A stretch of DNA of 64,000 bases from Thermoanaerobaculaceae bacterium (GCA_963754345.1 CAVWFZ010000002.1:13392-77391), one strand, 5' to 3'. Positions 2,482 through 63,400 are shown, counted from the first letter of the stretch. Notes: generated by a model not told the origin, from the letters alone. Program-made: numbers and translations.

Positions 2482-2575
2482 CTTCCGGCACCCTTTCGCG
2501 CCGCCGCATCGCCCGGAGCTACGGCTTGACCCCGTCCAACAGTCTTCCTTCCGAAAACTTTCTTTCATTTCCTTC

Positions 2576-3120
2576 TTTTTGCCCCGCGGGCTGGGAGCAG
2601 TCGCTCGGGCTGCGCATCGAGCGCAGCCCTCCGACCCGCCTCCGCGTGCGACCGAGCAGCGGTGCTCACCGTGGGGCCCCTCGGCGTTCGGGCTGCGCCC
2701 GCCGCCGACACCCCACGGCGATTCGCCGCGCTCGGTTCCCGCGCGCTTCGGCGTGATGGCTCCTGTCGCCCGCGGTGCGGATTTCACCCCCACCCCCCTA
2801 CAGCGCGGGGCGCAACGGGCGGGGGGCGTTCAATCCGCCGGTGCCGCGGGTGGCCAATCCCTCCGAAGCCTGCGGGTACCGGACGCGCGAGCCGCGTTGG
2901 GGAGACGGCGGTGCCGCCTCACGCGAACGCCGAGGGGCCCCGACGCGGATCACGCATTCCGGTCGCAGGCGGAGGAATGTGCGGCCGCAGCGGCTGGGGA
3001 GACGCAAGGCCGCACCCAGCCACCCGCGGGACCGGCACAAACAAGAAGCCGTCACGCAGTGACAAGACAAAGCCGGCCGCGCACCCACGGGGCAACAGAA
3101 ACCCCACGGCAGTGGAAAGG
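2576..3120. repeat. Copy A of a dispersed GC-rich intergenic repeat family (about 545 nt)
   Basis: It starts at TTTTGCCCCGCGGGCTGGGAGCAGTCGCTCGGGCTGCGCATCGAGCGCAGCCC; 83 nt are identical to 27172-27255. The core GGGGGCGTTCAATCCGCCGGTGCCGCGGGTGGCCAATCCCTCCGAAGCC recurs at 27497-27545 and inverted at 63064-63112. The 3' module GCCACCCGCGGGACCGGCACAAACAAGAAGCCGTCACGCAGTGACAAG is shared with 27700-27755, 30446-30490 and 63340-63390. Confidence 0.65.
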
Positions 3121-10026: not shown

Positions 10027-10101
10027 TGGCTGGGGCGGCAGGACTCGAACCTGCACATGCGGGATCCAAAGTCCCGTGGCTTACCATTTGCCGACGCCCC
10101 A
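10027..10101 (-). tRNA. tRNA-Gln (anticodon UUG), 75 nt including an encoded CCA
   Basis: The reverse complement reads TGGGGCG...CGGGA-CTTTGGA-TCCCG...GGTTCGAGTCC...CGCCCCAG-CCA. It has a 7-bp acceptor stem, anticodon loop CUUUGGA and discriminator G. Confidence 0.85.
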
Positions 10102-12141: not shown

Positions 12142-14071
12142 CCGTGACCTCGGCCAGCTTCTTCTCGATCCGCTCCTTCTGGCCCGCCTCCTCCGGGTCG
12201 AGGGTCAACGCCTTCGTGTACGCCTCGGCGGCCCTGGCCTTCTCGCCGCGGGCCCGGAAGAGATCGCCCACGTGCTCGTGGACGGTGGCGTCGAAGGGAT
12301 CGAGGCGCAGGCCCTCGATAAGGTGCTTCTCGGCGCGGTCGAGCTCCCCGAGGCGGAAGTACACCCAGCCCAGCGAGTCCTGGAAGGCACCCGAGGTTGG
12401 GTCCAGCTCGACGGCCTTGACGAGCATCGTGCGGGCCTCGTCGAGTTGGACTCCCTTGTCCGCGAACATGTAGCCGAGATAGTTGAGGGCAGCGGGGTTG
12501 TCGGGCTGCTTGGCGAGCAGCTTGCGGAACTGCACCACCGCCTCGTCCCACTTGCCGGAGCGTTCGAGCGCCGCGGCGTAGGCGAACAAGACCGCCGGCG
12601 GGTCGGCCAGGCGCGCCGTCGCTTCCTTCCCGCGCGAGGCTGCCTCCGCGTAGAGCTTCCGGCGGTCGAGGGCGCCCATGGCAGCCACCACGTCCTCCGG
12701 ATCCCCGGCGAACAAGCGGTCGACAGTTTGCTTGACCGCGGCCTCGTCGCCGGCGGCGATTCCGAACTCCACGAGCAACGAGTCGCGCAGGCGGACCGTC
12801 TCCTTCTCGTCCTCGATCTTGGTGTCGCGGACGAAAGCGAACCCTTCGCGGTACGACTCTCGCAGCCGGTAGTACTCACCCCAGAGGGCGAGCTGGCGCC
12901 GGTCCAGGGGCCCGTTTGAGAACTTCCGCAGCCACGTCAGCGCCGCGTCGGTCCTGTGGTCAAGAAGCTCAAGGGTCGCCCGCTCCTGGGCGATCTCGGC
13001 GGCGGCCTCCTCGCTGTCCAGCTTCTTCTCCTGAACCTGCTTCCAGAGACCGTCGAGGAGGGCCCGTGCCTCCGGGAGGCGCCGGGCGTCGATGAGCAGC
13101 CGCCCGAGGCCGAGTTCGGCATCGGGGTCACCGGGGTTGGCCGCGATGGCGCGCCGGTAGAGTTGCTCGGCCGCGTCCACATGACCGTTGCCGGCCTCGA
13201 GCATCGCTTTCAGGAGCAGCGCATCGTGCTGGTTCGGGTCGCTGGAGAGCACTTGGTCAAGGACCTCGGTGGCCCTGTCACGCTCGCCCGCACGCGCCAG
13301 CAGCGTGGCCCAGCGGGTGAGGCCGTTGAGCGTCACCCCCTCCTTCTTGAGGAACTCCCCGAGGACGTCCGCCGCTTCCTTGAACTTGCGGGCGGCGGCC
13401 AGCGTCTCCACCAGCTCGAGCGTGGCCCGCTGCCGCAGCTCGGGCACCGCCGCGGCGCGTTTGAGGTAGGTCACGGCCTCCTCGTACTTGCCCGTCTGGC
13501 GGAGCGCCTCGCCTGCGAGCACCCACAGCCTCGGGTCGTTGGGCCGCTCGTCCAGAAGGTATTGCACCTGCCCCCACGCCTGCTGTCCCCTCCCCATGCG
13601 CAACAGCGACTGTGCCAGCACCATTCGTGCCTGGCTTCCCTGCGGGAAAGCGTCCACGCCTTTCGTCAGGTGGGCGATCGCCACCTCCAGCTGGGCCGGG
13701 GTCTGGGCCGCCTGGGTCAGCAGGATGCCCAACGTGGCCTCCCCACCCATGGTCAGGTTCGGGACCTTCTGCAGTTGCTTGACCGCTTCGTCGCTCATGC
13801 CGCCGTCGGCCAGCGCCAGGCCGAACTCTTCCGCCAGCTCCAGGTTGTCGGGATCCAGCTCGCTTGCGCGGCGGAAGAGCTTCAGGCCCTCGGCGATCTC
13901 GCCGGAGGCCAGGCGGAGCTGCGCCTCCGCCACAATCGTCAGGGCTTCGACCGCGTGGTCGGACGGCACTGCCGACCGTTCCTTGGCGAGACTGGCCACG
14001 GCACCAGACAACGCCACCGCGGCCACAATAATCATTCCCAGACTTCGCCTCACCCTCACCTCCGCTGCCAT
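12125..14071 (-). CDS. Tetratricopeptide-repeat protein, secreted or membrane-anchored
   Basis: ATG at 14071 (MAAEVRVRRSLGMIIVAAVALSGAVA), then about 16 TPR-like units. The 285 codons upstream in the ORF are Arg/Gly-rich noise. Confidence 0.7.
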   Translation of the reverse strand: MAAEVRVRRSLGMIIVAAVALSGAVASLAKERSAVPSDHAVEALTIVAEAQLRLASGEIAEGLKLFRRASELDPDNLELAEEFGLALADGGMSDEAVKQLQKVPNLTMGGEATLGILLTQAAQTPAQLEVAIAHLTKGVDAFPQGSQARMVLAQSLLRMGRGQQAWGQVQYLLDERPNDPRLWVLAGEALRQTGKYEEAVTYLKRAAAVPELRQRATLELVETLAAARKFKEAADVLGEFLKKEGVTLNGLTRWATLLARAGERDRATEVLDQVLSSDPNQHDALLLKAMLEAGNGHVDAAEQLYRRAIAANPGDPDAELGLGRLLIDARRLPEARALLDGLWKQVQEKKLDSEEAAAEIAQERATLELLDHRTDAALTWLRKFSNGPLDRRQLALWGEYYRLRESYREGFAFVRDTKIEDEKETVRLRDSLLVEFGIAAGDEAAVKQTVDRLFAGDPEDVVAAMGALDRRKLYAEAASRGKEATARLADPPAVLFAYAAALERSGKWDEAVVQFRKLLAKQPDNPAALNYLGYMFADKGVQLDEARTMLVKAVELDPTSGAFQDSLGWVYFRLGELDRAEKHLIEGLRLDPFDATVHEHVGDLFRARGEKARAAEAYTKALTLDPEEAGQKERIEKKLAEVTGAPAP

Positions 14072-14205
14072 TGTAGTCTTCTCTTGCGGGGGGCTCTGCG
14101 GCACTCCGCCCACCCACCCGCCGCAGAAGTGCCCCCCGAACCCCCCGCGCTCGCGGGGAGTGAATCCCCGCTCGCTTGTCTCATCCGGCTTTTCATTCCG
14201 GGGGT

Positions 14206-15138
14206 TCAGGGGTGGTCGCTCCAGGCGGGCACGGTCGTCTTGGCCTCGGCCGGCAGCACAGCGAGGTCGCGGGCACCCGGGACGGGGACCTGCCCGCGCA
14301 GGTGCCTCCCTCCCTTCGCCAGCACGAGCAGGGCCTCGCCGGCGATGACCGCCACCTCTTCGCCTGCCGCGGCGAGCGCGGACACAGGGGCCGGCAGCGG
14401 GGTGCGAAACCTCTCCCGCAGCGGCTGCTTCGCAGAGGGATCCACCTTGAGGGCGAGTACCTCGCCCGAGGCACCGCTCGCGAGCCCCACGAGTACGTCC
14501 TTCCCGTTGGGCGCCAGACACAGGCAGCGCACCTCGCCGGCCACAGGCAGCTCGCCGCGGGCGCGCCCCTCGCCGAGCACAACTACTGCAGGGGTTGCGC
14601 CTCCCGTGGCCACCACGACGAACGCACCGTCGTTGGCCATCACGACCTGGGTGGCATCCCCCGGGAGGGCGACGGCCTGCGGCGTCCCTCCCTCCAGCAC
14701 CGCGATGAGGATCAGGGCGTGCGCCCCCACCTCGAACGGGATCGCTCCGACCAGGTGGCCGTCCTGCGAGGACGCGGCGCGCCGCACCCCCGACACTCCG
14801 GTCAGCGGAATGCGCTGCAACGGCAGCCGCTCGGGGTACGAGAGGGTCGCCAACAACCCGGGCATCACCACGTGCATGCGGTCGTAGTCGGCGAAGAACA
14901 TCGGGAAGACACGTCCGGGCCAACGCTCGGTCTTGCCGGTCGCGGCAATCACTGCAGTCGCGTCCTCTCCCTTGAGAGGGACAATGAGGCGAGCGTCGGG
15001 TGCCGCGAAGACCGCCAGGCCCTCCGAAGGCAACGGGATGCGTCGGATGACGGCCGGGCCCGCGACGTCCACGAAGACCACCTCATGCGGACAGAGAACC
15101 GCAGCTACGGTCGCGGCGAGCAGAGCAGCGGCAGGCAT
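14206..15138 (-). CDS. Hypothetical secreted protein
   Basis: Signal peptide MPAAALLAATVAAVLC. Gly/Val-rich beta-type sequence. The frame is consistent between the TPR gene and queG. Confidence 0.4.
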   Translation of the reverse strand: MPAAALLAATVAAVLCPHEVVFVDVAGPAVIRRIPLPSEGLAVFAAPDARLIVPLKGEDATAVIAATGKTERWPGRVFPMFFADYDRMHVVMPGLLATLSYPERLPLQRIPLTGVSGVRRAASSQDGHLVGAIPFEVGAHALILIAVLEGGTPQAVALPGDATQVVMANDGAFVVVATGGATPAVVVLGEGRARGELPVAGEVRCLCLAPNGKDVLVGLASGASGEVLALKVDPSAKQPLRERFRTPLPAPVSALAAAGEEVAVIAGEALLVLAKGGRHLRGQVPVPGARDLAVLPAEAKTTVPAWSDHP

Positions 15139-27114: not shown

Positions 27115-27760
27115 CGTTTCTTGCCCCGCGGGCTCGGATCGGCACTTTGTTCCTTCAACAGCGTTGCACTCTTTTTGCCCCGCGGGCTGGGAGCAGTCGC
27201 TCGGGCTGCGCATCGAGCGCAGCCCTCCGACCCGCCTTCGCGTGCGACCGAGCTGGCACAGACCGGCGTGCGGACCCTCGCTGTTCCTCGCCCTCGCGCT
27301 GCGCGCTCGTGTTCGGCCAGCGTTTCCACCCGCCGGTCTGGCCGCTCGGTGCCCGCACGCTCCGCCGGAATGGCTCCTATCGCCCGCGGGGCGGATTTCA
27401 CCTCCACCCCCCCGGTTCCCTGTGCACCTGCACGCACCTGATGCTCTTGCCAGGACTCTCGCCCCATTGGCACAGCCACCGCGTTACGGGAGGGGGACTT
27501 TCAATCCGCCGGTGCCGCGGGCGGCCTATCTCTCCGGAGCCCGTGGGCACCACGCGGTGGGATCCGGCGTGAGGTATCGGTGGCGCGAGGAGCCCAGGTT
27601 TGTGGCGACGAGCGAACACCGAGGAGCCTCGCGACGGGCCCGCCAGGCGTGGTCGCGGGCGGAGGAGTGTGCGGCCGCAGGCCGCGGGGGCGGCCAAGGC
27701 CGCAGGTTTAGCCACCCGTGGGACCGGCAACACAAAGCCACGCAGTGAAAGGGAGAGGCC
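27115..27760. repeat. Copy B of the dispersed repeat family (about 645 nt), in the divergent ffh / secreted-protein intergenic region
   Basis: The 5' motif TTGCCCCGCGGGCT occurs twice (27121, 27176). 83 nt match copy A. The core GGGGGACTTTCAATCCGCCGGTGCCGCGGGCGGCCTATCTCTCCGGAGCC and the 3' module GCCACCCGTGGGACCGGCAACACAAAGCCACGCAGTGAAAGGG are present. Confidence 0.65.
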
Positions 27761-30644: not shown

Positions 30645-31190
30645 ATGAAACGGGCGTTTCCGGCGAAAGGTGCAACCATGATCGTTTTCCTTACGCTCGC
30701 AGGCATCGGGCTCTTCTTGCTCCTCGTGTCCGCCTTCAGCGGGCACCACATGGACTTCCACTCCGACATCGACCACGGCGGCTTCGGCTTCCTCTCCGTG
30801 CGCGCCTTCGCGGCGTTCTTCACCGCCTTCGGAACGGTGGGCGCCATCGGGCGGCACTACGGGCTGACCACCGGCTGGAGCTCGGTGTGGGGGTTGGCCT
30901 CGGGGGTGGGCCTCGTCGGCCTGTACGTCGTTTCGATGGAGCTCGTCAAGTCGCAGCAGGCCAGCTCCCTGATCGCCGAGAACGAGCTGGTCGGCCTCAC
31001 CGCCCGGGTCACGGTGGCAATACCCGCCGACGGCATCGGCGAGGTGAGCTGCATCGTCAAGGCACAGACCGCGCGCCGCATGGCGCACAGCAGATCCGGG
31101 CAACCGATCGGCGAGGGCCATATGGTTCGCGTGATCGAGCTGCAAGGGGACGTCTGTCTGGTCGAGCCGTTAACGCAGTCGCAGGCGTAG
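30645..31190 (+). CDS. NfeD-family membrane protein (flotillin partner)
   Basis: Two N-terminal TM helices and a C-terminal OB-fold-like domain (GEVSCIVKAQTARRMAHSRSGQPIGEGHMVRVIELQGDVCLVEP). Located immediately upstream of flotillin. An alternative ATG lies at 30678. Confidence 0.7.
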   Translation: MKRAFPAKGATMIVFLTLAGIGLFLLLVSAFSGHHMDFHSDIDHGGFGFLSVRAFAAFFTAFGTVGAIGRHYGLTTGWSSVWGLASGVGLVGLYVVSMELVKSQQASSLIAENELVGLTARVTVAIPADGIGEVSCIVKAQTARRMAHSRSGQPIGEGHMVRVIELQGDVCLVEPLTQSQA

Positions 31191-31214
31191 TTTCTCAACC
31201 TTTCGGAGGTTGCC

Positions 31215-32786
31215 ATGCTCCCGTTCAGTCTTTCCCTCGTTCCGGTCCTTCTGGTCCTGGCCGCGCTGGTGGTCCTGGTCGTCTTCATGACCGCGGTGCG
31301 CAACTACATCAAGGTGCCGCCCAACAAGGTAGCGGTGTTCTTCGGGCGAAAGCACAGGACACCCGACGGGGCGACGGTCGGCTTCCGCCTGATCACCGGG
31401 GGCGCCTCGCTCAGGTGGCCGATCTTCGAGAGCGTCTCCTACCTCGACCTCAACATCTTCTCGATCGACCTGGACGTACGGGACGTGCCCAACAAGGACG
31501 GCGTGCTCGTTTCCGTTCAGGCTGTCGCCAACGTCAAGATCCGCAGCGACGAGGTGTCCCTGACCGCGGCGGCCGAGCGCTTCCTCAGCCGCAGCACCGA
31601 CGATATCAAGCAGATGGCCTACAAGAACCTCGAGGGCCACCTGCGCTCGATCGTCGGCCGCCTCACGGTCGAGGAGATCGTTCGCGACCGCGCCAAGTTC
31701 AACCAGGAGGTGCTCACCGAGGCGGCCGCCGACCTCGCCAAGATCGGGCTCGGCGTGGACGTGCTGACCATCCAGAAGGTCTCCGACGCCGAGGGCTATA
31801 TCGAGGCGCTGGGCAAGAAGCGCACCGCCGAGGTCAAGCGCGACGCCCAGATCGGTGAGGCCCTCGCCGCCCGCGAGGCCACGATTCAGTCCACCACCGC
31901 GCTGCGCGAGGGAAAGGAGACGGAGAACCAGAACCTCGCACTCGTGGCCCAGGCCGAGAAGGAGCGCGACGTTCGCAAGGCCCAGTACCAGGCCGAGGTG
32001 CAGGCGCAGCAGGCGCGCTCGCAGCAGGCCGGGCCGCTCTCCGAGGCCAAGGCCAGGCAGGAGGTGGTTGCCCAGGAGGTCCAGGTCGAGGTGATCCACA
32101 CGCTCAAGCAGACCGAGGTCGCCGAGGCCGCGGCCCTGCAGCGCGAGAAGGCCCTCCTCGCCGAGGTCGTCAAGCCCGCCGAGGCCCAGAAGGTCCAGAC
32201 CATCCTGCAGGCCGAGGCCGCCAAGCAACGCGAGATCCTCGAGGCCGAGGGCCACAGGACCGCGGTCGTCACCGTCGCCGACGCCGAGAAGCAGCGCCTT
32301 GCCCTCGAAGGCACGGGCGCCGCCGACGCCCTGCGGGCGAAGCTGCTCGCCGAGGCCGAGGGCAACAAAGCCAAGCTGCTCGCCGAGGCGGAAGGCAACA
32401 AGGCCAAGTTGCTCGCCGAGGCGGAAGGCATCAAGGCCAAGCTGCTCGCCGAGGCCGAGGGCGCCCTCAAGAAGGCGCAGGCGTTCGCGAAGATCGACGA
32501 GGGCGCCCGCACCATGCTCGTGCTCGAGCGCCTGCCCGACATGATCAAGGCGTTCGCGCCGGTGGCGGGGGCGGTGGCGGCGCCGATGGGCAACATCGAC
32601 AAGGTGATCATGATCGACGGCGGCGGCGAGGGCTCCTCGACCCTCAAGCGCTACGCCGACACCGTTCCCTCCACGATGTTCAGCGTGCTGCAGACCGCCC
32701 AGGCCCTCGGGCTCGACATCTCCGGCCTGCTGAAGAAGCTCGGGGTACAGGAGGTCAAAGAGGGCGGCGGCAAGGTGTCGGAGTAG
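31215..32786 (+). CDS. Flotillin-like SPFH/Band-7 protein
   Basis: N-terminal TM, an SPFH domain, then long Ala/Glu/Gln-rich coiled coil with KLLAEAEGNKA repeats. Typical FloT/YuaG architecture. Confidence 0.85.
   Translation: MLPFSLSLVPVLLVLAALVVLVVFMTAVRNYIKVPPNKVAVFFGRKHRTPDGATVGFRLITGGASLRWPIFESVSYLDLNIFSIDLDVRDVPNKDGVLVSVQAVANVKIRSDEVSLTAAAERFLSRSTDDIKQMAYKNLEGHLRSIVGRLTVEEIVRDRAKFNQEVLTEAAADLAKIGLGVDVLTIQKVSDAEGYIEALGKKRTAEVKRDAQIGEALAAREATIQSTTALREGKETENQNLALVAQAEKERDVRKAQYQAEVQAQQARSQQAGPLSEAKARQEVVAQEVQVEVIHTLKQTEVAEAAALQREKALLAEVVKPAEAQKVQTILQAEAAKQREILEAEGHRTAVVTVADAEKQRLALEGTGAADALRAKLLAEAEGNKAKLLAEAEGNKAKLLAEAEGIKAKLLAEAEGALKKAQAFAKIDEGARTMLVLERLPDMIKAFAPVAGAVAAPMGNIDKVIMIDGGGEGSSTLKRYADTVPSTMFSVLQTAQALGLDISGLLKKLGVQEVKEGGGKVSE
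32340..32465. repeat. About 3.8 tandem 33-bp coding repeats (KLLAEAEGNKA) inside flotillin
   Basis: Period-33 repetition of AAGCTGCTCGCCGAGGCCGAGGGCAACAAAGCC is visible directly. Confidence 0.8.
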
Positions 32787-32795
32787 GGGCCGCCC

Positions 32796-33287
32796 ATGTC
32801 CCAGCTCGCCTACACAAGCCAGAAGCCGTTCGAGGACAAGAGCAGCAACGTCCTCGTGGTCGCCTGCTCCGGCTACGCTTTTCTCCCTTTCGTGCGGGAG
32901 TTCCTCGACGCGCACCTCAAGCTGCCCGAGGGCTCCTACAACCTGATCGCGGTGCCCGGGGGCCCGCAGTTCCTGGCGCTCTCGGAGTACCTGCCGAAGT
33001 TCGCCTGGGTGGGGCAGAAGTGGATGACGTTCGCGATCGAGAAGCTGCAGGTCCGCAGGATCATCCTCGTCTGGCACCAGGAGTGCGTGTGGTACGGCGA
33101 CGAGCGCTTCGTCCCGGCGCTCCTGCACGCGCTCGGTCACGGCGAGCGGACGATGAAGGACCGCCAGCTCGAGGACCTGAGGCACGTCGTGGCCACGATG
33201 CGCGCCTCCGTGCCGGTGGCCTCCGTGGAGGCGTACTACATCGACAAGGGCGTCGACGGTCACCTGACCGTCAGCCGCGAGGCGTGA
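32796..33287 (+). CDS. Hypothetical protein (163 aa), co-oriented with flotillin
   Basis: Coding-like composition. Starts 10 nt after the flotillin stop. No family recognised. Confidence 0.45.
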   Translation: MSQLAYTSQKPFEDKSSNVLVVACSGYAFLPFVREFLDAHLKLPEGSYNLIAVPGGPQFLALSEYLPKFAWVGQKWMTFAIEKLQVRRIILVWHQECVWYGDERFVPALLHALGHGERTMKDRQLEDLRHVVATMRASVPVASVEAYYIDKGVDGHLTVSREA

Positions 33288-33398
33288 ACCCAGGTTTCGG
33301 GCTAAAACCAAGGCGCGTTCAGAAATGTGGGAAGTGCCCGCCGTGCGCGCGTTTCCGGAAGCGCTCCGGGACACACCCGGACGCGACGGAGGTGATCC

Positions 33399-34103: not shown

Positions 34104-34147
34104 CTGTCGGCGCCGTTACCGAATTCGTCCGCGAAACAAGCTCCAGT

Positions 34148-34564
34148 CTACCGGCGCGCCGCTTGCTTCTGCTCGCCGGGCTTGTAGGGGCGCAGGCAAA
34201 AGGCGGACCAGGTGTCGTTCACCGAGATCAGGTTGACCCACTTCAGGTCTGCGCCGGCGAGCCCGTCCCACCCCTTGTCGCGCGTCAGGTCGGTCTGAAT
34301 CCCTGAGGTCCCCTTCGGGAACGAGATCCAGAGCAGCCCCTCGGCGCCGAGAGCCTTGACCACCCTCGGTGCGACGCTCTTCAGCTCCGCGCTCGTGCGC
34401 ACGAACGCCTGGACCCAGTCGAACGTCCCCTGCAGCTTCTCGGAGATCTCAACCCCGGCCGGCAGCGGCGCAAGCTCTTTGAGGTACCCGCCCGGCGCGC
34501 CTATCACCGCCGCGCGACTCCCCGCCTTCAGCTTCATCTTCCTCGCGAGTGCGCTTTCAGTCAT
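34148..34564 (-). CDS. DUF3052 domain protein
   Basis: MTESALARKMKLKAGSRAAVIGAPGGYLKEL matches the DUF3052 N-terminal consensus. Confidence 0.55.
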   Translation of the reverse strand: MTESALARKMKLKAGSRAAVIGAPGGYLKELAPLPAGVEISEKLQGTFDWVQAFVRTSAELKSVAPRVVKALGAEGLLWISFPKGTSGIQTDLTRDKGWDGLAGADLKWVNLISVNDTWSAFCLRPYKPGEQKQAARR

Positions 34565-34597
34565 CCCATCCCCCGTGCGTGAACGCCTGCTGCTGCG

Positions 34598-34804
34598 TCA
34601 CCTGGGCTTCTCCCCGGCGCACAGCAGCCAGATCGCCCAGGCGCAGTACGCCCCCGAAACCGGCAGTCCCACATACGACAACACGAATGGGATCGTCGTC
34701 GTTCCGACCACGATCGGCCAGTGGAAGATGAGCCTGAAGAGGTGAAGTACCGCAACGAGAAGAAAAACGGCTCCCGAAAGGATCAGGTACAGCTTCTTGG
34801 CCAT
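34598..34804 (-). CDS. Small two-TM membrane protein (hypothetical)
   Basis: 68 aa with two hydrophobic helices. Confidence 0.35.
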   Translation of the reverse strand: MAKKLYLILSGAVFLLVAVLHLFRLIFHWPIVVGTTTIPFVLSYVGLPVSGAYCAWAIWLLCAGEKPR

Positions 34805-34860
34805 ACGAACGCTCCCTTCAAACCGCCGAACGACGCGCCGGCGCCGCCCAGGGGCGAGTA

Positions 34861-34897
34861 GATCAGACGTCGCGGTAGCGGCGGAGCTGCTCGGCCA
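34861..34897. repeat. Orphan duplicate of the Lon-like gene's last 11 codons; the left member of a direct-repeat pair with 39121-39157
   Basis: ATCAGACGTCGCGGTAGCGGCGGAGCTGCTCGGCCA here versus ATCAAACCTCGCGGTAGCGGCGCAGCTGCTCGGCCA at 39121. The reverse complement encodes AEQLRRYRDV* versus AEQLRRYREV*. Similarity extends about 15 nt further upstream. Confidence 0.65.
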
Positions 34898-34943
34898 CCA
34901 CTTTCAGGCGACTTGGCCTGCCCAGGCACAGGTGGTCCCGTGA

Positions 34944-35804
34944 TCAACGCCTGAAGACGGTGTAGCCCGTCGAGGCCTGCCATTCCGAAACCGCTGAGTA
35001 GAGCCGCGTCTGGCGGAAGTACGCAAACTCGAACGCTAGACGCAGCGATTGTTCTACTCTCTCGGGCGTAACCGTTGCGGCCGAGTTAGTCCCGAGGGTC
35101 CGCCGAAGTCCAATAGCGAGAACGTTGGCGATGTCGTGGCCGCAGCAAATCTGCCACGGATCGTGATTCCATCCGACTTCCGCGCCCAACGCAGTGAGCA
35201 GGTCTCTGGTCTTCAGATCATGCCTCTGCGAGTGGTCCTTAACTTCAGCGACGAGGCGGCCTGTTTCGCAGCGGAGATACGGCCTGTCGAGGATGAACCG
35301 CGACAAGTGCAGTCCTTCAAATCTAAGCCGAAGATCGCCGCGGCGTGAGATATGCCTCAAGTGGCCTAGGGGGAGGGCGGCGAAGATGATCGCCTCGCGA
35401 TGGCTCTTTTGTGCCAGAACGGCGTGCACCTTGAGTTTCTCGACCGATCCCAACTCAGCGAGGACGCGGTCCAGCGCAGGCGACGCAACGATCATCGTTT
35501 CCAGGTCATGCGTGTCTGTGTGAAAGAGTGACGGGAGCGCGGGAATATCGTTGTCGACTACGGAAAAGTCTGCGTCGATGATGCCAAGGACACCTTCGAC
35601 ATTGGCGCGCGTGAGGATCGATAGAGCTCTGGTTAATACCTCCCGGTTGTGAGAAGGGAGCAGTACGCACTCACCCTCGACAGTGAAGGCACCCAAGCAC
35701 TTTGCGTCCGCAGGTCCCTCGACAAGGAGGATTGATCCAGCGTGAACATCGCGCAGCAAGCGCACCGTCGCCACGAGAGCGTCTGGCGAGACGCATTCGA
35801 TCAT
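34944..35804 (-). CDS. DUF4435 / OLD-family Toprim-like protein (AriB-like)
   Basis: Toprim-like Glu (LLVEGPAD) and DxD (GIIDADFS). The ATG overlaps the upstream ATPase stop as ATGA. Lower GC. Confidence 0.55.
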   Translation of the reverse strand: MIECVSPDALVATVRLLRDVHAGSILLVEGPADAKCLGAFTVEGECVLLPSHNREVLTRALSILTRANVEGVLGIIDADFSVVDNDIPALPSLFHTDTHDLETMIVASPALDRVLAELGSVEKLKVHAVLAQKSHREAIIFAALPLGHLRHISRRGDLRLRFEGLHLSRFILDRPYLRCETGRLVAEVKDHSQRHDLKTRDLLTALGAEVGWNHDPWQICCGHDIANVLAIGLRRTLGTNSAATVTPERVEQSLRLAFEFAYFRQTRLYSAVSEWQASTGYTVFRR

Positions 35805-37132
35805 GGGAGCTTTGGAGCCTCGAGCTTCGTAGTCAGATCCCAGCGGTCATTGATGATTTGCGGTGAGTGGGTGGCGATTAGAGCGTCGAACGGCGCCAAC
35901 TGGATAATGGCCGCCAGATCCTTGAGGAAACGCAACTGCCAGGCAACGTGCAGCGAGAGCTCGGGTTCGTCGATCAAGACAAGTGCGTCCCTTTGGAGCT
36001 TGAATAGCAGCTCGTATACAAGAATCAGCTCATGTTGCTCGCCGGAGGACAACGACGAGACGGGAATCGCCTCGTTCCTAGGGGTGCGAAACACGAAACC
36101 CTGCTCGCGGTCAATGCCCATCTCCTTGAAGAGAAAGTGCTGGTTGATGAGGTCCTTGAAGAGATCAATTTTTTGTGCAAGGTCCGAGTAGATCTCCAGC
36201 TTCTTCTCGACATCAGTAACCCAAAGGGATAGAACACTGGTTTCGTGATCACTAAGGTCCCCGTGGCGGACTTGGAATGCCGGTTCGGTCTGTGGATCCA
36301 GTAGGCCCGCGCCAATGAGGTGGGTCCGAGTAGTTTCGATTGATTCCATTCGAGACAGGAGTTCATCCTCGGTGAACAGCTGGCGACCGGTGACTTGGAC
36401 CAACCGCTGGGGGAAGGTGCGGTCCAACGCCTGAGATAGGGCCGCAGATTCAGCCAGCTTGCTCTTGATCGCGGACGCGAGATCTTGCGCGTATGCCTCA
36501 ACGGTGGCTGACCAAGTGGTGCGAGGTTGCTTGCGAGTGAAGGACTGCTCATCGGAAAAACGGAGTAAGCGTTGAGCTTCAATCAGACGCACGGATACCG
36601 ACTCTGTGTAGTGTGTAAGCCATTCTGGGGGCGACGATGCTTCTCGAAGAGATCTCGGCAGGGAGAGCTCGTCCGCATAGGTTCTGACCACGTCCGCCAA
36701 CTCGACGACCCGGCCTGTGCGCAAGTCTCTCCATAGCCGAGCTCCTACCCTCTCAAGATAAGGGATCTCATGCTCAATCAGGGACATCGGAAAGTGGCGC
36801 ACGAAGTCAGGGTCGAGTGGGGCATCCCTAAAGGTCTTGGGCCTGTCGCGAGGAGAGGTGAGCGTGTACTCGAGGAGGGTTATGTCTTCCTGCGGCAGTC
36901 GCTTGACCAAGAGCGATGATCGGTCAGCTAAGCCAATCTCGAGCGCTGAGAAAGGTGTTTTGCGGAGAATCTCGCGATTACGGTTGAATACGGCATCGAT
37001 TAGCCGCAGAACAGTTGTTTTGCCATAGCCATTGGGGCTGTGGATTATCGTCAGGCGCCGATCAGGATCTAGCTGTATGTCGTGGTCGAAGAGGTCAAAG
37101 AGACCCGTGACTGAGAAACGCGTGACTCTCAT
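35801..37132 (-). CDS. ABC-type ATPase of the AAA_15/AAA_21 family (AriA-like)
   Basis: Walker A SPNGYGKTT, ABC signature LSSGEQHELIL, Walker B LVLIDEPELSLH, H-loop IATHSPQI. ATG at 37132 after AGGAG. Confidence 0.65.
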   Translation of the reverse strand: MRVTRFSVTGLFDLFDHDIQLDPDRRLTIIHSPNGYGKTTVLRLIDAVFNRNREILRKTPFSALEIGLADRSSLLVKRLPQEDITLLEYTLTSPRDRPKTFRDAPLDPDFVRHFPMSLIEHEIPYLERVGARLWRDLRTGRVVELADVVRTYADELSLPRSLREASSPPEWLTHYTESVSVRLIEAQRLLRFSDEQSFTRKQPRTTWSATVEAYAQDLASAIKSKLAESAALSQALDRTFPQRLVQVTGRQLFTEDELLSRMESIETTRTHLIGAGLLDPQTEPAFQVRHGDLSDHETSVLSLWVTDVEKKLEIYSDLAQKIDLFKDLINQHFLFKEMGIDREQGFVFRTPRNEAIPVSSLSSGEQHELILVYELLFKLQRDALVLIDEPELSLHVAWQLRFLKDLAAIIQLAPFDALIATHSPQIINDRWDLTTKLEAPKLP

Positions 37133-37304
37133 GAGAGGCTCCTGTTCTGTGGCGCGGCTCTGGCAAACAGCCTAAGTCAATGCAATCGTATCCTCTTTAT
37201 AGCTGGTGCGAAAGCGCTGTCGCGCAGGGGACGCTTGGCGAACGACCGATCGGCGGTCTGCCGCTCATCTGGCTGTCCGAGCCAAAGCCAAGCTCACGGC
37301 GCCG

Positions 37305-37655
37305 CTACTCGGGCGCGAGCAGGGCCCGTGCTCTGGCCAGGATCTCCTCGACCGTCGGAGGCGGGAGCACGCAGGCGAGCGTCGCCTTGCGCGCCCGCCA
37401 GTCCAGACTCTTGATCTGGTCAGCGAGGATCACACCGCTGACGGCGAGGTCGTCAGGAATTGGCACCTCGAACGGGTACCCCTTCACCTGCGACGTCACC
37501 GGGCACGCCAGGCAGAGACCCACCTTGCGGTTATACGCCTTGGGCGTCAGCACCACGGCCGGTCGGCGACCTGCCTGCTCTCGTCCGGCCTGGGGAGTGA
37601 ACGTGAGCCAGACAACGTGGCCGCGGTCGGGCACGTAGGGCATAAGAGCTACCAA
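37305..37655 (-). CDS. mazF: MazF/PemK-family endoribonuclease toxin
   Basis: VVWLTFTPQAGREQAGRRPAVVL...ADQIKSLDW is the PemK/MazF fold signature. It overlaps the upstream antitoxin by 7 nt. Confidence 0.8.
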   Translation of the reverse strand: MVALMPYVPDRGHVVWLTFTPQAGREQAGRRPAVVLTPKAYNRKVGLCLACPVTSQVKGYPFEVPIPDDLAVSGVILADQIKSLDWRARKATLACVLPPPTVEEILARARALLAPE

Positions 37656-37891
37656 GCCTCACGGCCCTGTGGAGCGCCTGTCGAAACCTCGCCGTGCAGG
37701 TTTGTCTTGCGGACCCTCGCGAGGAGTTCCGACAGGCGAACCACTCGCCGGGAGGCCGGCGCAATGACGAGCTTCCCCTCGTGCACCGTCAGTTCCACCT
37801 GGGCATTCGGCTGCAGGCCCACCTCCGAGGCGAAAGGCTTCGGAATGCGCACCGCGAGACTGTTTCCCCATTTCTGGACCCGGGCAACCAT
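37649..37891 (-). CDS. mazE: MazE/AbrB-type (SpoVT/AbrB) antitoxin
   Basis: ATG at 37891 after GGGGAGG (MVARVQKWGNSLAVRIPKPFASEVGL). A putative promoter TTGACG-17-TATCTT lies at 37916-37944. Confidence 0.7.
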   Translation of the reverse strand: MVARVQKWGNSLAVRIPKPFASEVGLQPNAQVELTVHEGKLVIAPASRRVVRLSELLARVRKTNLHGEVSTGAPQGREAW

Positions 37892-38102
37892 GGCGCCTCC
37901 CCTGGATCGACAATGAAGATACATCGCACACCACGGCTCGTCAAGTGCGATGGCAGGGCGGGGGGTGGCACGAGCAATGGACACCCCCTCCCGGATCCCT
38001 CGCTTCGCTCGGGATGACAAACAGGAAGCGCCTTGCGGGGAGACGGACGGAACACCCGGAGGCGGGACAAGTGCGCACCGCCACCCGCTGGGCAAACCAG
38101 CG

Positions 38103-38459
38103 CTAGCTCGCCTTGGCCAGGATGACGACCTCCTTGGCGAGACGGTCGCCGAGGCGATCCTTCTCGACCTCGAGGTCGTAGCGCGCCTGGAGGTTGAGCC
38201 AGAACCGCTCCGACGTGCCGAAGTACCGCGCGAGACGCAGAGCAGTGTCGGCCGTGATCGCGCGCTTACCGTGCACCACCTCGTTGATCCGCCGGGGCGG
38301 GACGCTGGTGTCCTTGGCCACGCGGTACTGCGAGATCTCGAGCGGCTTGAGGAACTCCTCGAACAGGATCTCGCCGGGATGCACCGGCGCGAGCTTCCGC
38401 TTCCGGATCGGGGGCCCGCTCCTAGTGGTAGTCAACGATCTCGACCTCATGGGCATCAC
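38103..38459 (-). CDS. higA: HigA-family XRE helix-turn-helix antitoxin
   Basis: VHPGEILFEEFLKPLEISQYRVAKDTSVPPRRINEVVHGKRAITADTALRLARYFGTS is the HigA signature. Start uncertain (MMPMRS or MRS). Confidence 0.75.
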   Translation of the reverse strand: MMPMRSRSLTTTRSGPPIRKRKLAPVHPGEILFEEFLKPLEISQYRVAKDTSVPPRRINEVVHGKRAITADTALRLARYFGTSERFWLNLQARYDLEVEKDRLGDRLAKEVVILAKAS

Positions 38460-38709
38460 CCTCCTTCCACACGAAACAGATTCTCCACCGGTCGTTGATC
38501 CGAATGCTGTGCTGGCCCTCCCGATCGCCCGACAGCTTCTCGAGCCGGTTGCCCGGAGGAACCCTGAGGTCCTGCAGCGTCTCCGCCGCGTCGAGCATCA
38601 CCAGCCTGCGTAAGGCAACCCTCTGCAGGTCCTGAGGCAACCGCCGCGATCCGCGCCGCTGAAACACCCTTTCAGTCTCGGGGTCGCGGAAGTTCCGGAT
38701 CATCGACAA
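38422..38709 (-). CDS. higB: HigB/RelE-family toxin (plasmid-maintenance killer)
   Basis: MIRNFRDPETERVF...INDRWRICFVW...VEIVDYH. Toxin upstream of antitoxin is the HigBA order. The likely ATG is at 38703. Confidence 0.7.
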   Translation of the reverse strand: MSMIRNFRDPETERVFQRRGSRRLPQDLQRVALRRLVMLDAAETLQDLRVPPGNRLEKLSGDREGQHSIRINDRWRICFVWKEGDAHEVEIVDYH

Positions 38710-38750
38710 CCACGATAACGCGACACGTTATTATTGTCAACCGTTATGCC
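38710..38750 (-). promoter_or_regulatory. higBA promoter with a palindromic operator (ATAACG-TGTCG-CGTTAT), probably giving a leaderless transcript
   Basis: The reverse complement reads ggcataacggTTGACAataataacgtgtcgcgtTATCGTggttgtcgATG: -35 TTGACA, a 17-nt spacer, -10 TATCGT, and an inverted repeat that overlaps the spacer and -10. Confidence 0.4.
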
Positions 38751-38869
38751 TCACCCCGCGACAGACACAGCAACAAAGGGCAACCACGCGCGCACGGCGT
38801 GCGCGCCCCACGTCCGAGGAAGAGGGCACCGCATTGGTCAGGAAAGAGTTCCGTCCCGCATGTGGGGCG

Positions 38870-39115
38870 GTCATTCCCCCGAAGGCGGCGGGGACACATC
38901 GCGTGGGTGGGGAAAACACGCCCCTCGGGTGAAGCGGCGATCTCTCCGGAGGCCGCGGGGACCCAGCGCACGGATCGGCGCCGGGAGACGCGGGCGGCCG
39001 CAGGCCGAACCGCGAGGGTCACGGCGGCGAGGCGCGCCGCTGGGTCGCGGCCGAAGGAGTCTCGGGCCGCGGCGCGTCGGGACGCGCAAGGCCCAAGGCC
39101 CCGCTTCACCCGAGG
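38870..39115. repeat. Degenerate copy of the dispersed repeat family abutting the 3' end of the Lon-like gene
   Basis: GGTCATTCCCCCGAAGGCGGCGGGG matches copy C GGTGATTCCGCCCGAAGGGTGGCG. GGCGATCTCTCCGGAGGCCGCGGGG matches the core CCTATCTCTCCGGAGCC. The tail GCGCAAGGCCCAAGGCCCC...GGGGCAAATCAAAC matches the 3' modules. Confidence 0.35.
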
Positions 39116-39121
39116 GGCAAA

Positions 39122-41506
39122 TCAAACCTCGCGGTAGCGGCGCAGCTGCTCGGCCATCTCTGCCAGGCGCGCGGCGCAGCGCCCGAAGATGCTGCCCTCC
39201 GGGTAGTTCCCGTCGGCATCACGCACGCCGGCCGGCATGCCCATCAGCAGCTCGACCCCCTCCTCGATGCGCGAAACCGGGTAGATGTGGAAGCCGCCCC
39301 ACTCCACCGCCGCCGCCACCTCGGGGTCGAGCTGCAGGTCGGCGACGTTGGACTCCGGGATCAGCACCCCGTGCGTGCCCGAGAGGCCGCGCTGCGAGCA
39401 GAGGGAAAAGAACCCCTCGATCTTCTCGTTGACGCCGCCGATCGCCTGGATGCGCCCGGTCTGGTCGACCGAACCGGTCACCGCCAGGTCCTGCCGGATC
39501 GGGATCCCCGAGAGCGCCGAGAGGATCGCATACACCTCCGTGGAGGAGGCGCTGTCACCCTCGACGCCGCCGTACGACTGTTCCAGGGCGATCGACGCGG
39601 TCATCGAGAGTGGAACCTCGGACGCGAACGTGCCGCGCAGGAAGCCGGACAGGATCAGCACGCCCTTGGTGTGGATGTTGCCGGAGAGGCTCGCCTCGCG
39701 CTCGATGTTGACCACGCCCTCGCGGCCGAGTGAGACCCGTGCCGTCACGCGGCCCGGCAGGCCGAAGGCGTGGTAGCCGAGGTCGTAGACGGTGAGGCCG
39801 TTCACCTGCCCGACCACCACGCCCTCGGTCGGGATCACGAGCACGTCGTCCAGCATAAATGACGCGAGTTTCTCCTCGGGCAGGGAGTGGCGGTCGCGCC
39901 GCGCCCGCACCGCGGCGTGGATGTGCTCGGTGCCGACGATCTTCTTCCGCGTGCCGCCCGCCAGGAACGCGGCTTCGCGCAGGATGTCGGCGACGTCCGA
40001 GAACCGGGCCGAGATGCGCCTGCGGTTGCGCGCCAGCCTCACCGCCTCCTCTACCAACGCCGCCATGCCGCCGCGGTCGAGGTGGGGCAGCTTCTCGTCG
40101 CGGATGATCTTGGCCATGAGGGCGAGGAAGTCGGCCACCTGCTCGCGCCCGTTCGGCATCTCGCTGTCGAAGTCCGAGAGCACCTTGAAGATCTTGCAGA
40201 ACTCCTCGTCGGCCTCGTGCAGAAGGTCGTAGAGGGCGCGGTCCCCGATCATCATCATCTTGACGTCGAGGTCCACGGGCTCCGGCTGCAGCGCATGGCC
40301 GGACATCGCGAAGAGGATGTCGCGCGAGCGGATGACGACCCGCCGGTAGCGCAGCGCGCGCTTGAGCGCGGGCCACACGCCGGCCTCCGAGACCGCATCG
40401 AAGGCGTTGACGACCAGGAAGCCACCGTTTGCCCGCAGCAGCGACCCGGCGCGGATGCGCATGTGGTCGGAGGTGGAGTGGAAGTTTTGCGCCAGCCGGG
40501 CCTCGATGGTACCGAAGAGGTTGCCGTAGGAAGGCTCCGTCTCGATGATGATCGGGCGCCCCTTGGTGCCGCCGTTGTCCACCACGACGTTGACCCGGTA
40601 GCGTAGCAGCGGGTCGCCGTCCTCGCCGCCGTCCTGCGCGCCGAAGAGCTCCACGTGGTCCAGCATGTCCTGGCGCAGCTCGTCGAGGTAGCGGGTGACG
40701 CGGGGATCCTTGACCGCCCGCGTCACCTGGCCGAGGGACTGCTTCAGGAACGGCTCCAGCGTGTCGCGCCGAAGCTTCTCCGCGCGCGTGACCATCTCCT
40801 CCCGGATCGTCGTAACCTCGTGGAAGACCCGCTGCAGCTCCTCCGAGAGCTTGCCGTGGGCCTGCTCGATGGTGCCGGCCTTCTCGCGGTCGAACTTCCC
40901 CTCTTCGGCGAGGCTCTGGACCTTGTCGAGGGTCACCGGCCGTTCCTCGACCACCGGCAGGATCTCCGGCCGCGTGACCGAACCCACCTGCACCTGCACG
41001 AGCGTGAAACCGGCCTCCCGCACCTTGTGCTCGAAGCTCTTGATCAGCTCCTGCTGCTTTGATTTGAGGTCCTCGAGGGTCAGCTCCAGCCGCTGCTGGA
41101 ACTCCTCACCCTCGAACATGGTGGGCAGCCCCTTGGCCATGTCGCGCAGCAGCTTGTCGAGGCGTTCGCGGAGGACTGCGCCGCGCCCTGCGGCGAGGCG
41201 CAGCAGACGCGGCTGCTCGGGGCGCGCGAAGTTGTACACGAACAGCAGGTCGTCGGGAGCTTCACCCTTGTCTGCCAACGGCCGCATGTGCAGCTCGATG
41301 GCGGTCATCCGTCCGGTGCCGGTGAGACCGGTCACGAACACGTTGAAGCCGAGCGACTGCACCGAGAGGCCGAATTCGAGGGCACGCACCGCGCGCGCCT
41401 GCCCGATGATTCCCTGTGAGGGCTCGATCTTCGAGGTCGAGTCGGCCGGGAGCCATTCCTCCGGGCAATGCCACCGCAGCTCGTTTGCAGCCAGCTCTCG
41501 AGCCAC
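39122..41506 (-). CDS. Lon-like ATP-dependent protease (AAA+ ATPase plus Lon C-terminal S16 protease domain; COG1067-type)
   Basis: AAA+ Walker A VFVTGLTGTGR and a C-terminal Lon proteolytic domain (GPSAG-like Ser, Lys dyad region). The likely GTG start at 41506 after GGAGGTG avoids overlap with the MMPL gene. Confidence 0.8.
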   Translation of the reverse strand: MARELAANELRWHCPEEWLPADSTSKIEPSQGIIGQARAVRALEFGLSVQSLGFNVFVTGLTGTGRMTAIELHMRPLADKGEAPDDLLFVYNFARPEQPRLLRLAAGRGAVLRERLDKLLRDMAKGLPTMFEGEEFQQRLELTLEDLKSKQQELIKSFEHKVREAGFTLVQVQVGSVTRPEILPVVEERPVTLDKVQSLAEEGKFDREKAGTIEQAHGKLSEELQRVFHEVTTIREEMVTRAEKLRRDTLEPFLKQSLGQVTRAVKDPRVTRYLDELRQDMLDHVELFGAQDGGEDGDPLLRYRVNVVVDNGGTKGRPIIIETEPSYGNLFGTIEARLAQNFHSTSDHMRIRAGSLLRANGGFLVVNAFDAVSEAGVWPALKRALRYRRVVIRSRDILFAMSGHALQPEPVDLDVKMMMIGDRALYDLLHEADEEFCKIFKVLSDFDSEMPNGREQVADFLALMAKIIRDEKLPHLDRGGMAALVEEAVRLARNRRRISARFSDVADILREAAFLAGGTRKKIVGTEHIHAAVRARRDRHSLPEEKLASFMLDDVLVIPTEGVVVGQVNGLTVYDLGYHAFGLPGRVTARVSLGREGVVNIEREASLSGNIHTKGVLILSGFLRGTFASEVPLSMTASIALEQSYGGVEGDSASSTEVYAILSALSGIPIRQDLAVTGSVDQTGRIQAIGGVNEKIEGFFSLCSQRGLSGTHGVLIPESNVADLQLDPEVAAAVEWGGFHIYPVSRIEEGVELLMGMPAGVRDADGNYPEGSIFGRCAARLAEMAEQLRRYREV

Positions 41507-63046: not shown

Positions 63047-63400
63047 CTGTTTTGCCCCGCGGGCTTCGGAGAGATAGGCCACCCGCGGCACCGGCGGATC
63101 AAAAAGCCCCCTCCCGCAGCGCGAGACGAGGAGGGCAACCTCATCGCGCACCGGGTGGGTGGGGGTGATTCCGCCCGAAGGGTGGCGAAGCCATCGCGCT
63201 GGAGCGAGCGGGGTCCCCGACGCGCTGGCCGGCATGGGGAGACGGCGGCGGCGCTTCATGCGAACGCCGAGGGGCCCTGTGCCGGGCAGCGCTGTCGGGT
63301 CGCTCGCGCAGGCGTCACGAGTCCTGCCAACGGCAGGATGAGTGAGCGAAGCCACCCCCGGGCAAGAAAGCCCAACGCAGTTGAAAGAAGATTCCACTCC
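63047..63400. repeat. Copy C of the dispersed repeat family, with the core motif in inverted orientation, next to the ahcY 3' end
   Basis: TTTTGCCCCGCGGGCT is followed directly by TCGGAGAGATAGGCCACCCGCGGCACCGGCGGATCAAAAAGCCCCCTCCCG, the reverse complement of the core seen in A and B. The middle aligns with A (GGGGAGACGGCGG.G.CGC.TCA.GCGAACGCCGAGGGGCCC). The 3' module GCCACCCCCGGGCAAGAAAGCCCAACGCAGTTGAAAG is present. Confidence 0.6.

Follow-up and report, generated by a model that had tools for sequence, protein, structure and literature searches.

The 64,000-nt stretch of DNA analysed here (the window; GCA_963754345.1 CAVWFZ010000002.1:13392-77391) comes from a Thermoanaerobaculaceae bacterium, an uncultured soil bacterium of the Acidobacteriota, and contains a gene for a LonC-like protease (lonC) whose 3′ end occurs a second time beyond a 4.2-kb cargo of toxin-antitoxin (TA) and putative anti-phage genes. 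We found that the second lonC end is very probably the scar of a real insertion, and that this insertion most likely came about by ordinary recombination with DNA of relatives rather than by a self-contained mobile island. The explanation that we favour, with a probability of about 0.5, is a gene-end displacement, in which DNA from related Thermoanaerobaculaceae found a homologous anchor at one end and was attached at its other end by an illegitimate join. Positions are those of the whole window (Table 1), and L-numbers denote contigs of relatives, each in its own numbering.

The two lonC ends form a direct repeat of 49 nt in which 42 of 49 positions are identical (86%) at a spacing of 4,259 nt. 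It was obtained both with a repeat finder and by reading of the sequence, and was recovered once more, as family D10, when the whole window was scanned for repeats. Its 36-nt core (GGCCGAGCAGCTSCGCCRCTACCGCGA; 34862–34897 and 39121–39156) has three mismatches, and the longest identical runs within the repeat measure only 13–14 nt. A 29-nt core pattern with up to three mismatches was present at only two places in the 64 kb, and two matches were seen in none of 100 shuffled controls. The proximal copy comprises the last 16 codons and the stop codon of lonC, its translation ending in AEQLRRYREV and the stop, and the distal copy read in frame ends in AEQLRRYRDV and the stop. The distal copy is located 33 nt past the stop codon of ariB and 58 nt ahead of the start of p68, a small membrane protein gene. 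The similarity of the copies continues for about 15 nt beyond the stop codon if an indel of 4 nt is allowed, and no lonC similarity was detectable upstream of the distal 49 nt, where the alignment score was equalled by 13 of 500 shuffles. The first-pass annotation of this DNA had described a 37-nt core with three mismatches, the two different peptide endings and a weaker extension of some 15 nt. All of these stood up, the core being right to one base with its coordinates shifted by one, and the extension requiring the 4-nt indel past the stop.

Lon homologues assign the window to Thermoanaerobaculaceae, in which the LonC-like orthologues share 97–60% identity. Exact-protein look-ups with the Lon of the window, in versions from two start codons, and with AriA gave no match. 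The two copies in the window diverge by 14%, close to the approximately 15% that separates lonC between lineages, as expected if the copies stem from two lineages. As a gene-end displacement would leave it, an orphan end of the anchor gene, with a divergence typical of another lineage, stands beyond the inserted DNA. Tracing it to one particular lineage was unsuccessful, as the distal copy matched the lonC ends of nine lineages at 27–33 of 36 positions with no decisive nearest relative.

The first-pass annotation had proposed that DNA entered at the 3′ end of the Lon-like gene, in it or behind it, and left a second gene end downstream, and relatives with an empty site bear this out. In two lineages a single lonC end directly precedes p68, with a gap of 70 nt in L165/L166 and of 74 nt in L169. 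The true lonC end of L165, GACGTCTGA (ending in RYRDV and the stop), is identical to the end of the distal copy. Past the stop, the distal copy reads TGATCTAC and resembles the TGATCAAC of L167, the lonC end of which is CGCTACCGCGACATCTGATCAAC as compared with CGCTACCGCGACGTCTGATCTAC in the distal copy. The 58 nt that separate the distal copy from p68 can be aligned with the 74-nt lonC-p68 spacer of L169 (CCTGG.C.GCG.CGGCGC ... GCGTTCGGC). Since the distal copy is still joined to this spacer and to p68, it derives from a lonC-p68 junction of the unoccupied type, and the homology running past the stop into the spacer fits an orthologous lonC end rather than a piece of a paralogue. The ancestral arrangement, which relatives retain, is lonC (ending in RYRDV), a spacer of about 60–70 nt and p68. 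In the window lineage it has become a functional lonC (ending in RYREV), a structured repeat element, 4.2 kb of cargo (higBA, mazEF and ariAB), a 49-nt orphan lonC end, the native spacer and p68.

The cargo between the copies is composite. In L162, the lonC 3′ end is followed by a 283-nt spacer and ariA-ariB, and the TA genes are absent. Positions 1–340 of this contig correspond to window 39352–39033 and positions 388–2697 to window 37255–34950. Because the homology breaks at 39033 and resumes at 37255, the 1.8 kb with higBA and mazEF is a separate indel in the lonC-ariA spacer. The products of ariA and ariB are 86% and 71% identical in amino acids (aa), respectively, to those encoded behind lonC in L162. 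The homology to L162 ends at the ariB stop, and no lonC copy was found in the 254 nt beyond it. The nearest relative, L163, is 98.5% identical to the window over 48000–38867 and 98.1% identical over 34132–30900, with 6.5 kb of different DNA between these flanks. Within the exchanged block p68 is only 91% identical and p138, the accessory gene next to it, has been replaced. The exchange boundaries fall inside a partial repeat copy behind lonC and beyond p138, away from the direct repeats, so that between close relatives the boundaries do not match the repeats and the element does not behave as a single unit. A search with all lonC ends found no distal copy in the corresponding intervals of L163, L164, L081 and L001 or in the 254 nt of L162. 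Among the relatives' intervals searched, the distal copy was seen only in the window and in a contig of the same strain, L161 (European Nucleotide Archive [ENA] ERZ25039515 contig_76555). This contig belongs to another assembly record, is 98.4% identical and has the same junction of ariB, distal copy and p68.

The very end of lonC also differs from that of L163. In window 39122–39142, as compared with L163 12365–12385, there are five substitutions in the last 21 nt of the gene, whereas the flanks are 98.5% identical. The changes are CGC to AGA, GAG to GAA and GTT to TTC (V to F), and the repeat element that follows is 97–100% identical. Gene conversion could have left this cluster as a patch, or it could mark a recombination junction.

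A second scar was found in L081, where the 5′ end of p138 is repeated directly over 52 nt with 86.5% identity (3419–3470 and 4305–4356), and the first of the two copies continues in frame into the 3′ part of p68, giving a chimeric small open reading frame (ORF). The scar is a single case and lies at a different gene, so one site-specific integrase would not account for both scars; it is what scarring that is not site specific would leave.

The interval from lonC to ffh is a hotspot with at least nine states of occupancy among relatives with 76–97% Lon identity. In L167/L168 and L172/L173 (Lon approximately 84%) lonC is followed by orf134 and ffh. In L165/L166 (86%), the 70-nt gap and p68 are followed by the flavin reductase gene and ffh, and in L169 (84%) the 74-nt gap and p68 are followed by the flavin reductase gene, orf163, Band_7, orf170 and ffh. 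In L164 (85%), a repeat element, two unknown ORFs, a p68-like gene, p138 and the flavin reductase gene come after lonC. L081 (85%) has orf133, the chimeric p138′::p68, orf146 and p138, and L001 (76% by tblastn, and 80% for protein P0155 of the same contig) has 520 nt, a cupin-like ORF and p138. In L163 (97%), a repeat element, a decayed integron, three minus-strand genes, p68 and orf131 are found behind lonC, and the partial contig L162 has a partial repeat element before ariAB.

Recombinase genes were searched for at several levels. No integrase, transposase or resolvase was found among the approximately 45 larger ORFs of the window that were scanned with Pfam. The smaller ORFs and the 44–49 kb stretch were covered solely through the precomputed annotation of L163. 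All ORFs of the island were searched with both Pfam and PADLOC and no recombinase was found in them, in agreement with the first-pass annotation. The scans across the window showed housekeeping genes, among them prs, pth, ribosomal protein genes, queG, an ffh-rpsP-rimM-trmD-rplS-rnhB cluster, cinA and plsY. The only tRNA gene of the window, at 10027–10101, rules out insertion into a tRNA or tmRNA gene. Neither the repeat core, nor the inverted-repeat arm, nor AriA relatives had a match on viral contigs, and there is thus no sign of a phage or satellite attP. No dif-like dyad, as XerCD/dif-type capture would use, was recognized in the direct repeat when it was judged by eye only.

The one recombinase remnant at the hotspot lies in L163, in which a 75-aa ORF (12765–12992) located 380 nt past lonC corresponds to the C-terminal part of an integron-type integrase (TIGR02249, 2.6e-32, model positions 242–313 of 315, versus XerD, 1.2e-23). 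It is followed by a GTTAGGC core (13229–13235), a DUF5677 cassette ORF in the same orientation and a 127-nt attC-like hairpin GCCTAAC...GTTAGGC (14145–14271; z = −5.1). By these features L163 12765–14271 is a decayed integron with at least one cassette. Having its own attI/attC-like sites, the remnant belongs to the L163 cargo, and since integron integrases capture cassettes and do not integrate islands into gene ends, it is not the missing integrase of the window. An integron origin of the window island itself was rejected, as the island spacers contain no GTTRRRY/RYYYAAC motif and neither an attC hairpin nor intI is present. An attC scan found no site in the window and one in L163; the scan was crude, with no match even in the presumed cassette array of L170.

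Other integrase fragments were noted on the way. When the intI C-terminal fragment was compared with the database, its 120 best matches (P0241–P0360) were all 66–132 aa long, some of them on contigs of 50 kb–1.2 Mb. One of these matches, in L170 (3260–4273), is the second half of an intI that is split into ORFs of 243 and 90 aa and has a series of small same-strand ORFs downstream. It seems to be very common that C-terminal intI pieces are called as genes of their own. Nitrospirae and other distant phyla have a Lon-like gene with the coding sequence of a tyrosine-recombinase C-terminus directly upstream (L049 8349–8510, L068 2–118 and L154 1169–1285), an arrangement that may be a conserved xer-like/lon neighbourhood. 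Lying upstream of lon and in distant phyla, these matches were judged irrelevant to the scar.

In the displacement that we favour, homology would anchor the DNA at one flank, an illegitimate join would close the other and a stretch of the lonC end would thereby be kept twice; no integrase encoded by the element would be needed. The incoming DNA may have consisted of a 3′ part of lonC, the repeat element and the cargo, with the anchor in lonC and the illegitimate join 49 nt before the resident stop. In the opposite polarity it would have consisted of a lonC fragment, p68 and p138, with the anchor on the flavin reductase side and the illegitimate join just after ariB. The cargo would have been built stepwise, ariAB coming to lie behind lonC as in L162 and the TA pairs entering as a separate indel. 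Close relatives such as the window strain and L163 would swap the cargo wholesale by ordinary homologous recombination, with two crossovers within the conserved flanks or within copies of the repeat family. The displacement is supported by the native context of the distal copy, the hotspot, the composite cargo, the boundaries lying off the repeats, the uniqueness of the scar in the window, the scar of L081 and the lack of a recombinase among the ORFs scanned. Several points weigh against it. No donor sequence was found that would show the illegitimate joint and any microhomology at it, and both polarities fit equally well. Integrase-borne islands, too, classically enter a conserved gene at its 3′ end and restore the frame, and a preferred recombination site could equally explain why several cargos share one left junction, made up of the lonC stop and the repeat element. 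Furthermore, the scars of the window and of L081 (49 nt/86% and 52 nt/86.5%) are strikingly alike, which random illegitimate joints would not predict, and this likeness might point to a process that depends on short homology, such as Campbell-type insertion of a circle. The relatives were sampled as one representative genome per species plus short metagenome contigs, and the L162 contig stops 254 nt past ariB.

The main rival is site-specific integration, in which an attP mimicking the last 40–50 nt or so of lonC would have been used by a tyrosine or serine recombinase since deleted or acting in trans, the two copies would be attL and attR, and later recombination would have reshuffled the cargo. 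Direct repeats do flank the inserted DNA and one of them overlaps the end of the target gene, a conserved gene has its 3′ end duplicated with the ORF restored, and empty sites exist in relatives; the identical runs in the repeat are nevertheless only 13–14 nt at the longest, and L162 has ariAB behind lonC, yet no lonC copy within the 254 nt past ariB. In the window, L163 and L164, different cargos come after an identical left junction of lonC stop and structured repeat, and the substitutions at the lonC end look as if elements had supplied different gene ends, whereas L163, L164, L081 and L001 have no distal copy, the strain-level exchange boundaries lie away from the repeats and the second scar in L081 is at another gene. 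The tyrosine-recombinase remnant of L163 speaks for this rival, but it is of the integron type and serves cassette capture, and no recombinase was found in the other relatives' hotspots examined or in the scanned window ORFs; the core and the repeat arm occur on no viral contig. Since no integrase was found and the boundaries are not the ends of a unit, the locus departs in two defining respects from an attL/attR island, and we consider site-specific integration doubtful, though well ahead of the other alternatives. The attL/attR of one discrete integrative element, as put forward in the first-pass annotation, thus lacks support (no recombinase found, composite cargo, boundaries off the repeats, no other distal copy), and of the possibilities raised there, the data come nearest to capture by recombination.

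A Campbell-type event, in which a circle illegitimately excised from a relative with about 50 nt of the lonC end and the cargo would have entered by one RecA-dependent crossover, is improbable in our judgement. A single crossover duplicates exactly the shared segment, and both scars are near the minimal efficient processing length for homologous recombination, but recombination over some 50 nt with 14% mismatch would be very inefficient, no sign of a circular intermediate was seen, and the present data would look alike under displacement. We rate it as very improbable that there was no insertion at all and that the match is due to chance, to an assembly chimera of co-occurring strains or to what is left of a second Lon paralogue once located beside the defence genes. 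In favour of it are the origin of the genome from a metagenome and the fact that the related lineage L164 shares its ENA sample (ERZ25039515) with the same-strain contig L161. Against this, the match was reproduced in 0 of 100 shuffles, the junction is also present in the other assembly record, and no further lonC homology was found upstream of the 49 nt.

The genes between and beside the copies are listed in Table 1. In the orientation of lonC, the order is lonC, a 199-nt element (38920–39118), higB-higA, mazE-mazF, ariA-ariB, the distal copy, p68 and p138; all genes from lonC to p138 are on the minus strand, and the convergent flavin reductase-rubredoxin gene comes after p138. The ariAB pair has the sequence features expected of PARIS (the phage anti-restriction-induced system), an AriA-type ATPase gene with an AriB-type DUF4435/TOPRIM gene directly downstream, and is a putative PARIS on this basis. 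The ariA-like product also matched PtuA models (3e-19), its best PADLOC match being AriA (6.5e-25). The Pfam DUF4435 score of the ariB-like product is 26.5 bits, slightly below the cut-off of 27, and ariB homologues carry PF14491. With a HigB-like toxin gene upstream of an HTH_3 antitoxin gene and mazE upstream of a PemK/MazF toxin gene, higBA and mazEF are predicted to be canonical type II TA pairs by domains and gene order. PARIS is known from E. coli systems as an anti-phage defence that is triggered by anti-restriction proteins and acts by tRNA cleavage. From family membership, AriA-AriB should be a defence that cleaves tRNA once a phage triggers it, and the two TA pairs should serve in addiction or abortive infection.

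Among the cargo, only ariAB is compositionally foreign, with a GC content of 0.57 and a GC content at third codon positions (GC3) of 0.65 for ariA and 0.68 for ariB. The TA genes have GC contents of 0.65–0.67 and GC3 of 0.82–0.92, as compared with GC3 of 0.85–0.94 in host genes. The accessory, lower-GC interior described in the first-pass annotation was therefore right as to gene content; the drop in GC does not extend beyond ariAB, the TA genes being host-like. The DUF3052 label given there to the 138-aa gene was not confirmed because this gene has no Pfam match. A perfect small hairpin, GTCATCCCGAGCGAAGCGAGGGATCC, is present at 37993–38017 in the higA-mazE spacer as a single copy in the window, and we take it to resemble a palindromic motif widespread in other phyla.

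Table 1. Positions and annotation of the features of the 64-kb window that bear on the duplicated lonC end.
Feature	Position	Strand	Remarks
Proximal repeat copy	39121–39169	-	functional LonC-like 3′ end (ending ARLAEMAEQLRRYREV and stop) plus one base past the stop
Distal repeat copy	34862–34910	-	displaced lonC terminus (ending SRLKVVAEQLRRYRDV and stop), non-coding remnant
LonC-like protease gene	39122–41506	-	794 aa from GTG start; Pfam LonC_helical, AAA_32, LonB_AAA-LID, Lon_C
higB toxin gene	38422–38709	-	Pfam HigB-like_toxin, 3.5e-20
higA antitoxin gene	38103–38459	-	Pfam HTH_3
mazE antitoxin gene	37649–37891	-	80 aa, start MVARVQKWGNSLAV; Pfam MazE_antitoxin, 9.5e-13
mazF (PemK-like) toxin gene	37305–37655	-	Pfam PemK_toxin, 9.9e-25
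ariA-like ABC/AAA ATPase gene (PARIS-like)	35801–37132	-	Pfam AAA_15, AAA_21, AAA_23; PADLOC AriA 6.5e-25
ariB-like DUF4435/TOPRIM gene	34944–35804	-	PADLOC AriB 9.4e-14; 4-nt overlap with ariA
p68, small membrane protein gene	34598–34804	-	directly behind lonC in empty-site relatives
p138, accessory gene (138 aa)	34148–34564	-	in L001, L081, L164; absent from L163, L165, L169
Segment differing from nearest relative L163 (strain-level exchanged block)	34133–38866		identity breaks at 38867 and 34132
Repeat family, complete copy beside lonC	38903–39136	-	nhmmer E = 2.4e-50; family about 240 nt
Repeat family, partial second copy (right end)	38850–38903	-	E = 0.0012
Repeat family, other copy	2573–2791	+	
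Repeat family, other copy	2822–3065	-	
Repeat family, other copy	27158–27402	+	
Repeat family, other copy	27493–27750	-	
Repeat family, other copy	63160–63385	-	
Repeat family, other partial copy	63055–63111		

The element next to lonC belongs to a dispersed family of structured repeats and is bounded by perfect 18-nt terminal inverted repeats at 38920–38937 and 39101–39118. The model of the family overlaps the final 15 nt of lonC, and the identity break between the window and L163 (38867) falls within the partial copy that follows the complete one. The first-pass annotation had placed a degenerate family copy in the island. A complete copy abutting lonC and the partial copy were indeed found, and the candidate in the higA-mazE spacer was rejected (E = 1.6). 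Further copies of the family were seen in L081, L164 and L165, where they lie between the flavin reductase gene and ffh. The copies often occur as convergent pairs just 3′ of genes.

The lonC-adjacent element folds, as DNA, with −83.9 kcal/mol (z = −7.4). A common fold over seven copies has 73 pairs, 30 of them with compensatory changes, and pairs 92% of cells as against 37–48% when the partners are slid, values reached by none of 500 shuffles. The counts of G-U and A-C show no preferred strand. In Rfam, no family was found for the structured repeat or anywhere in the island, the sole sub-threshold match being ASdes inside lonC. The lonC-adjacent copy (window 39121–38911 versus L164 12386–12604) is 93–98% identical to that of L164, whereas lonC is approximately 85% identical, and the step in identity sits at the lonC stop codon. 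A recombination breakpoint inside lonC was looked for by a sliding identity scan and none was found, the only sharp change being that at the stop. The higher identity of the element suggests strong constraint or a recent exchange of the junction between the lineages.

The repeat of about 240 nt might itself be the landing pad of an undescribed cassette-capture system with a recombinase in trans, which we consider a long shot. In such a system higBA, mazEF and ariAB would possibly have been inserted beside or inside hairpins that are attC/attI-like in function, with an unrelated site. The fold backed by covariation, the presence of at least seven copies in 64 kb, mostly just 3′ of genes, the location of the cargo breakpoints of window/L163, L162 and L081, all in or at repeat-family copies, and the conservation of the lonC-adjacent copy from lineage to lineage would permit it. 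With its covariation, its high copy number and its place at gene 3′ ends, this family of structured repeats may be a more original lead than the scar.

Other repeats of the window lie in coding DNA. Tandem repeats of 87-nt units (4223–4508 and 3984–4157) are part of a 600-aa methyltransferase-domain gene (3127–4929), and those of 33-nt units (AKLLAEAEGNK-like; 32336–32495) are within a Band_7/flotillin gene (31215–32786). A 734-aa minus-strand ORF at 31170–33374 is probably spurious, because the plus-strand ORFs at 31215–32786 and 32796–33287 have GC3 of 0.94–0.96 and match two genes annotated in L163 and L169, the Band_7 gene and the 163-aa one.

Among known systems, the locus is comparable to the effector-immunity loci of Rhs and type VI secretion systems (T6SS), where C-terminal displacement and orphan arrays have been explained by homology-facilitated illegitimate recombination (Kirchberger et al, 2017, PMC5361080; Jackson et al, 2009 cited there). 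There, as would be the case here, DNA of relatives is anchored in a conserved upstream gene and brings its own gene end and new cargo, the old gene end is pushed downstream as an orphan and no recombinase takes part; close relatives differ mostly by clean homologous replacement, and scars are rare. Unlike at those loci, the displaced piece is no toxin domain accompanied by an immunity gene but only 49 nt of a housekeeping-type protease gene, the cargo consists of TA and anti-phage genes, and the mechanism is deduced from one scar and its L081 analogue. Integrase-borne islands and phage satellites sit in 3′ ends of tRNA or protein genes between attL/attR repeats, and PARIS was discovered in satellites of this kind, the P4-like ones (Rousset et al, 2022, PMC9122126). 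The locus shares with integrase-borne islands and P4-like satellites the repeats that duplicate a gene 3′ end, the restored frame and AriA/AriB among the defence cargo. It differs from them in that no integrase, excisionase or other mobility gene was found, the cargo is composite, the boundaries lie off the repeats, other occupied sites have no second repeat and the copies are only 86% identical.

Pan-genome studies of E. coli and Pseudomonas have described defence hotspots that are flanked by core genes and turn over their cargo rapidly. At the lonC-ffh locus, similarly, a fixed interval is filled with another set of defence, TA or unrelated genes in almost every lineage, and the exchange seems to run through the conserved flanks. 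The locus is distinguished by its occurrence in an uncultured family of Acidobacteriota, by the presence of non-defence genes too, by the decayed integron in one strain and by the structured dispersed repeat that marks its left edge. A likeness to chromosomal integrons and clusters of attC sites lacking integron-integrases (CALIN) was seen in the TA and defence genes lying in one orientation behind a fixed point, and in the sister strain L163 it extends to an intI remnant, GTTAGGC core sites and an attC hairpin at the same hotspot. The window island, unlike integrons and CALIN, has no attC-like sites or intI, and its modules have their own promoter-bearing spacers.

The locus is a further example of known phenomena in an under-sampled phylum, and no new kind of mobile element. 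It is a fixed site at which defence and TA genes gather and turn over in a barely studied family, with no mobility genes found, and in the window strain a rare physical scar records how one acquisition occurred. The lonC-ffh interval could be used as a marker locus for collecting accessory and defence genes from Thermoanaerobaculaceae metagenomes.

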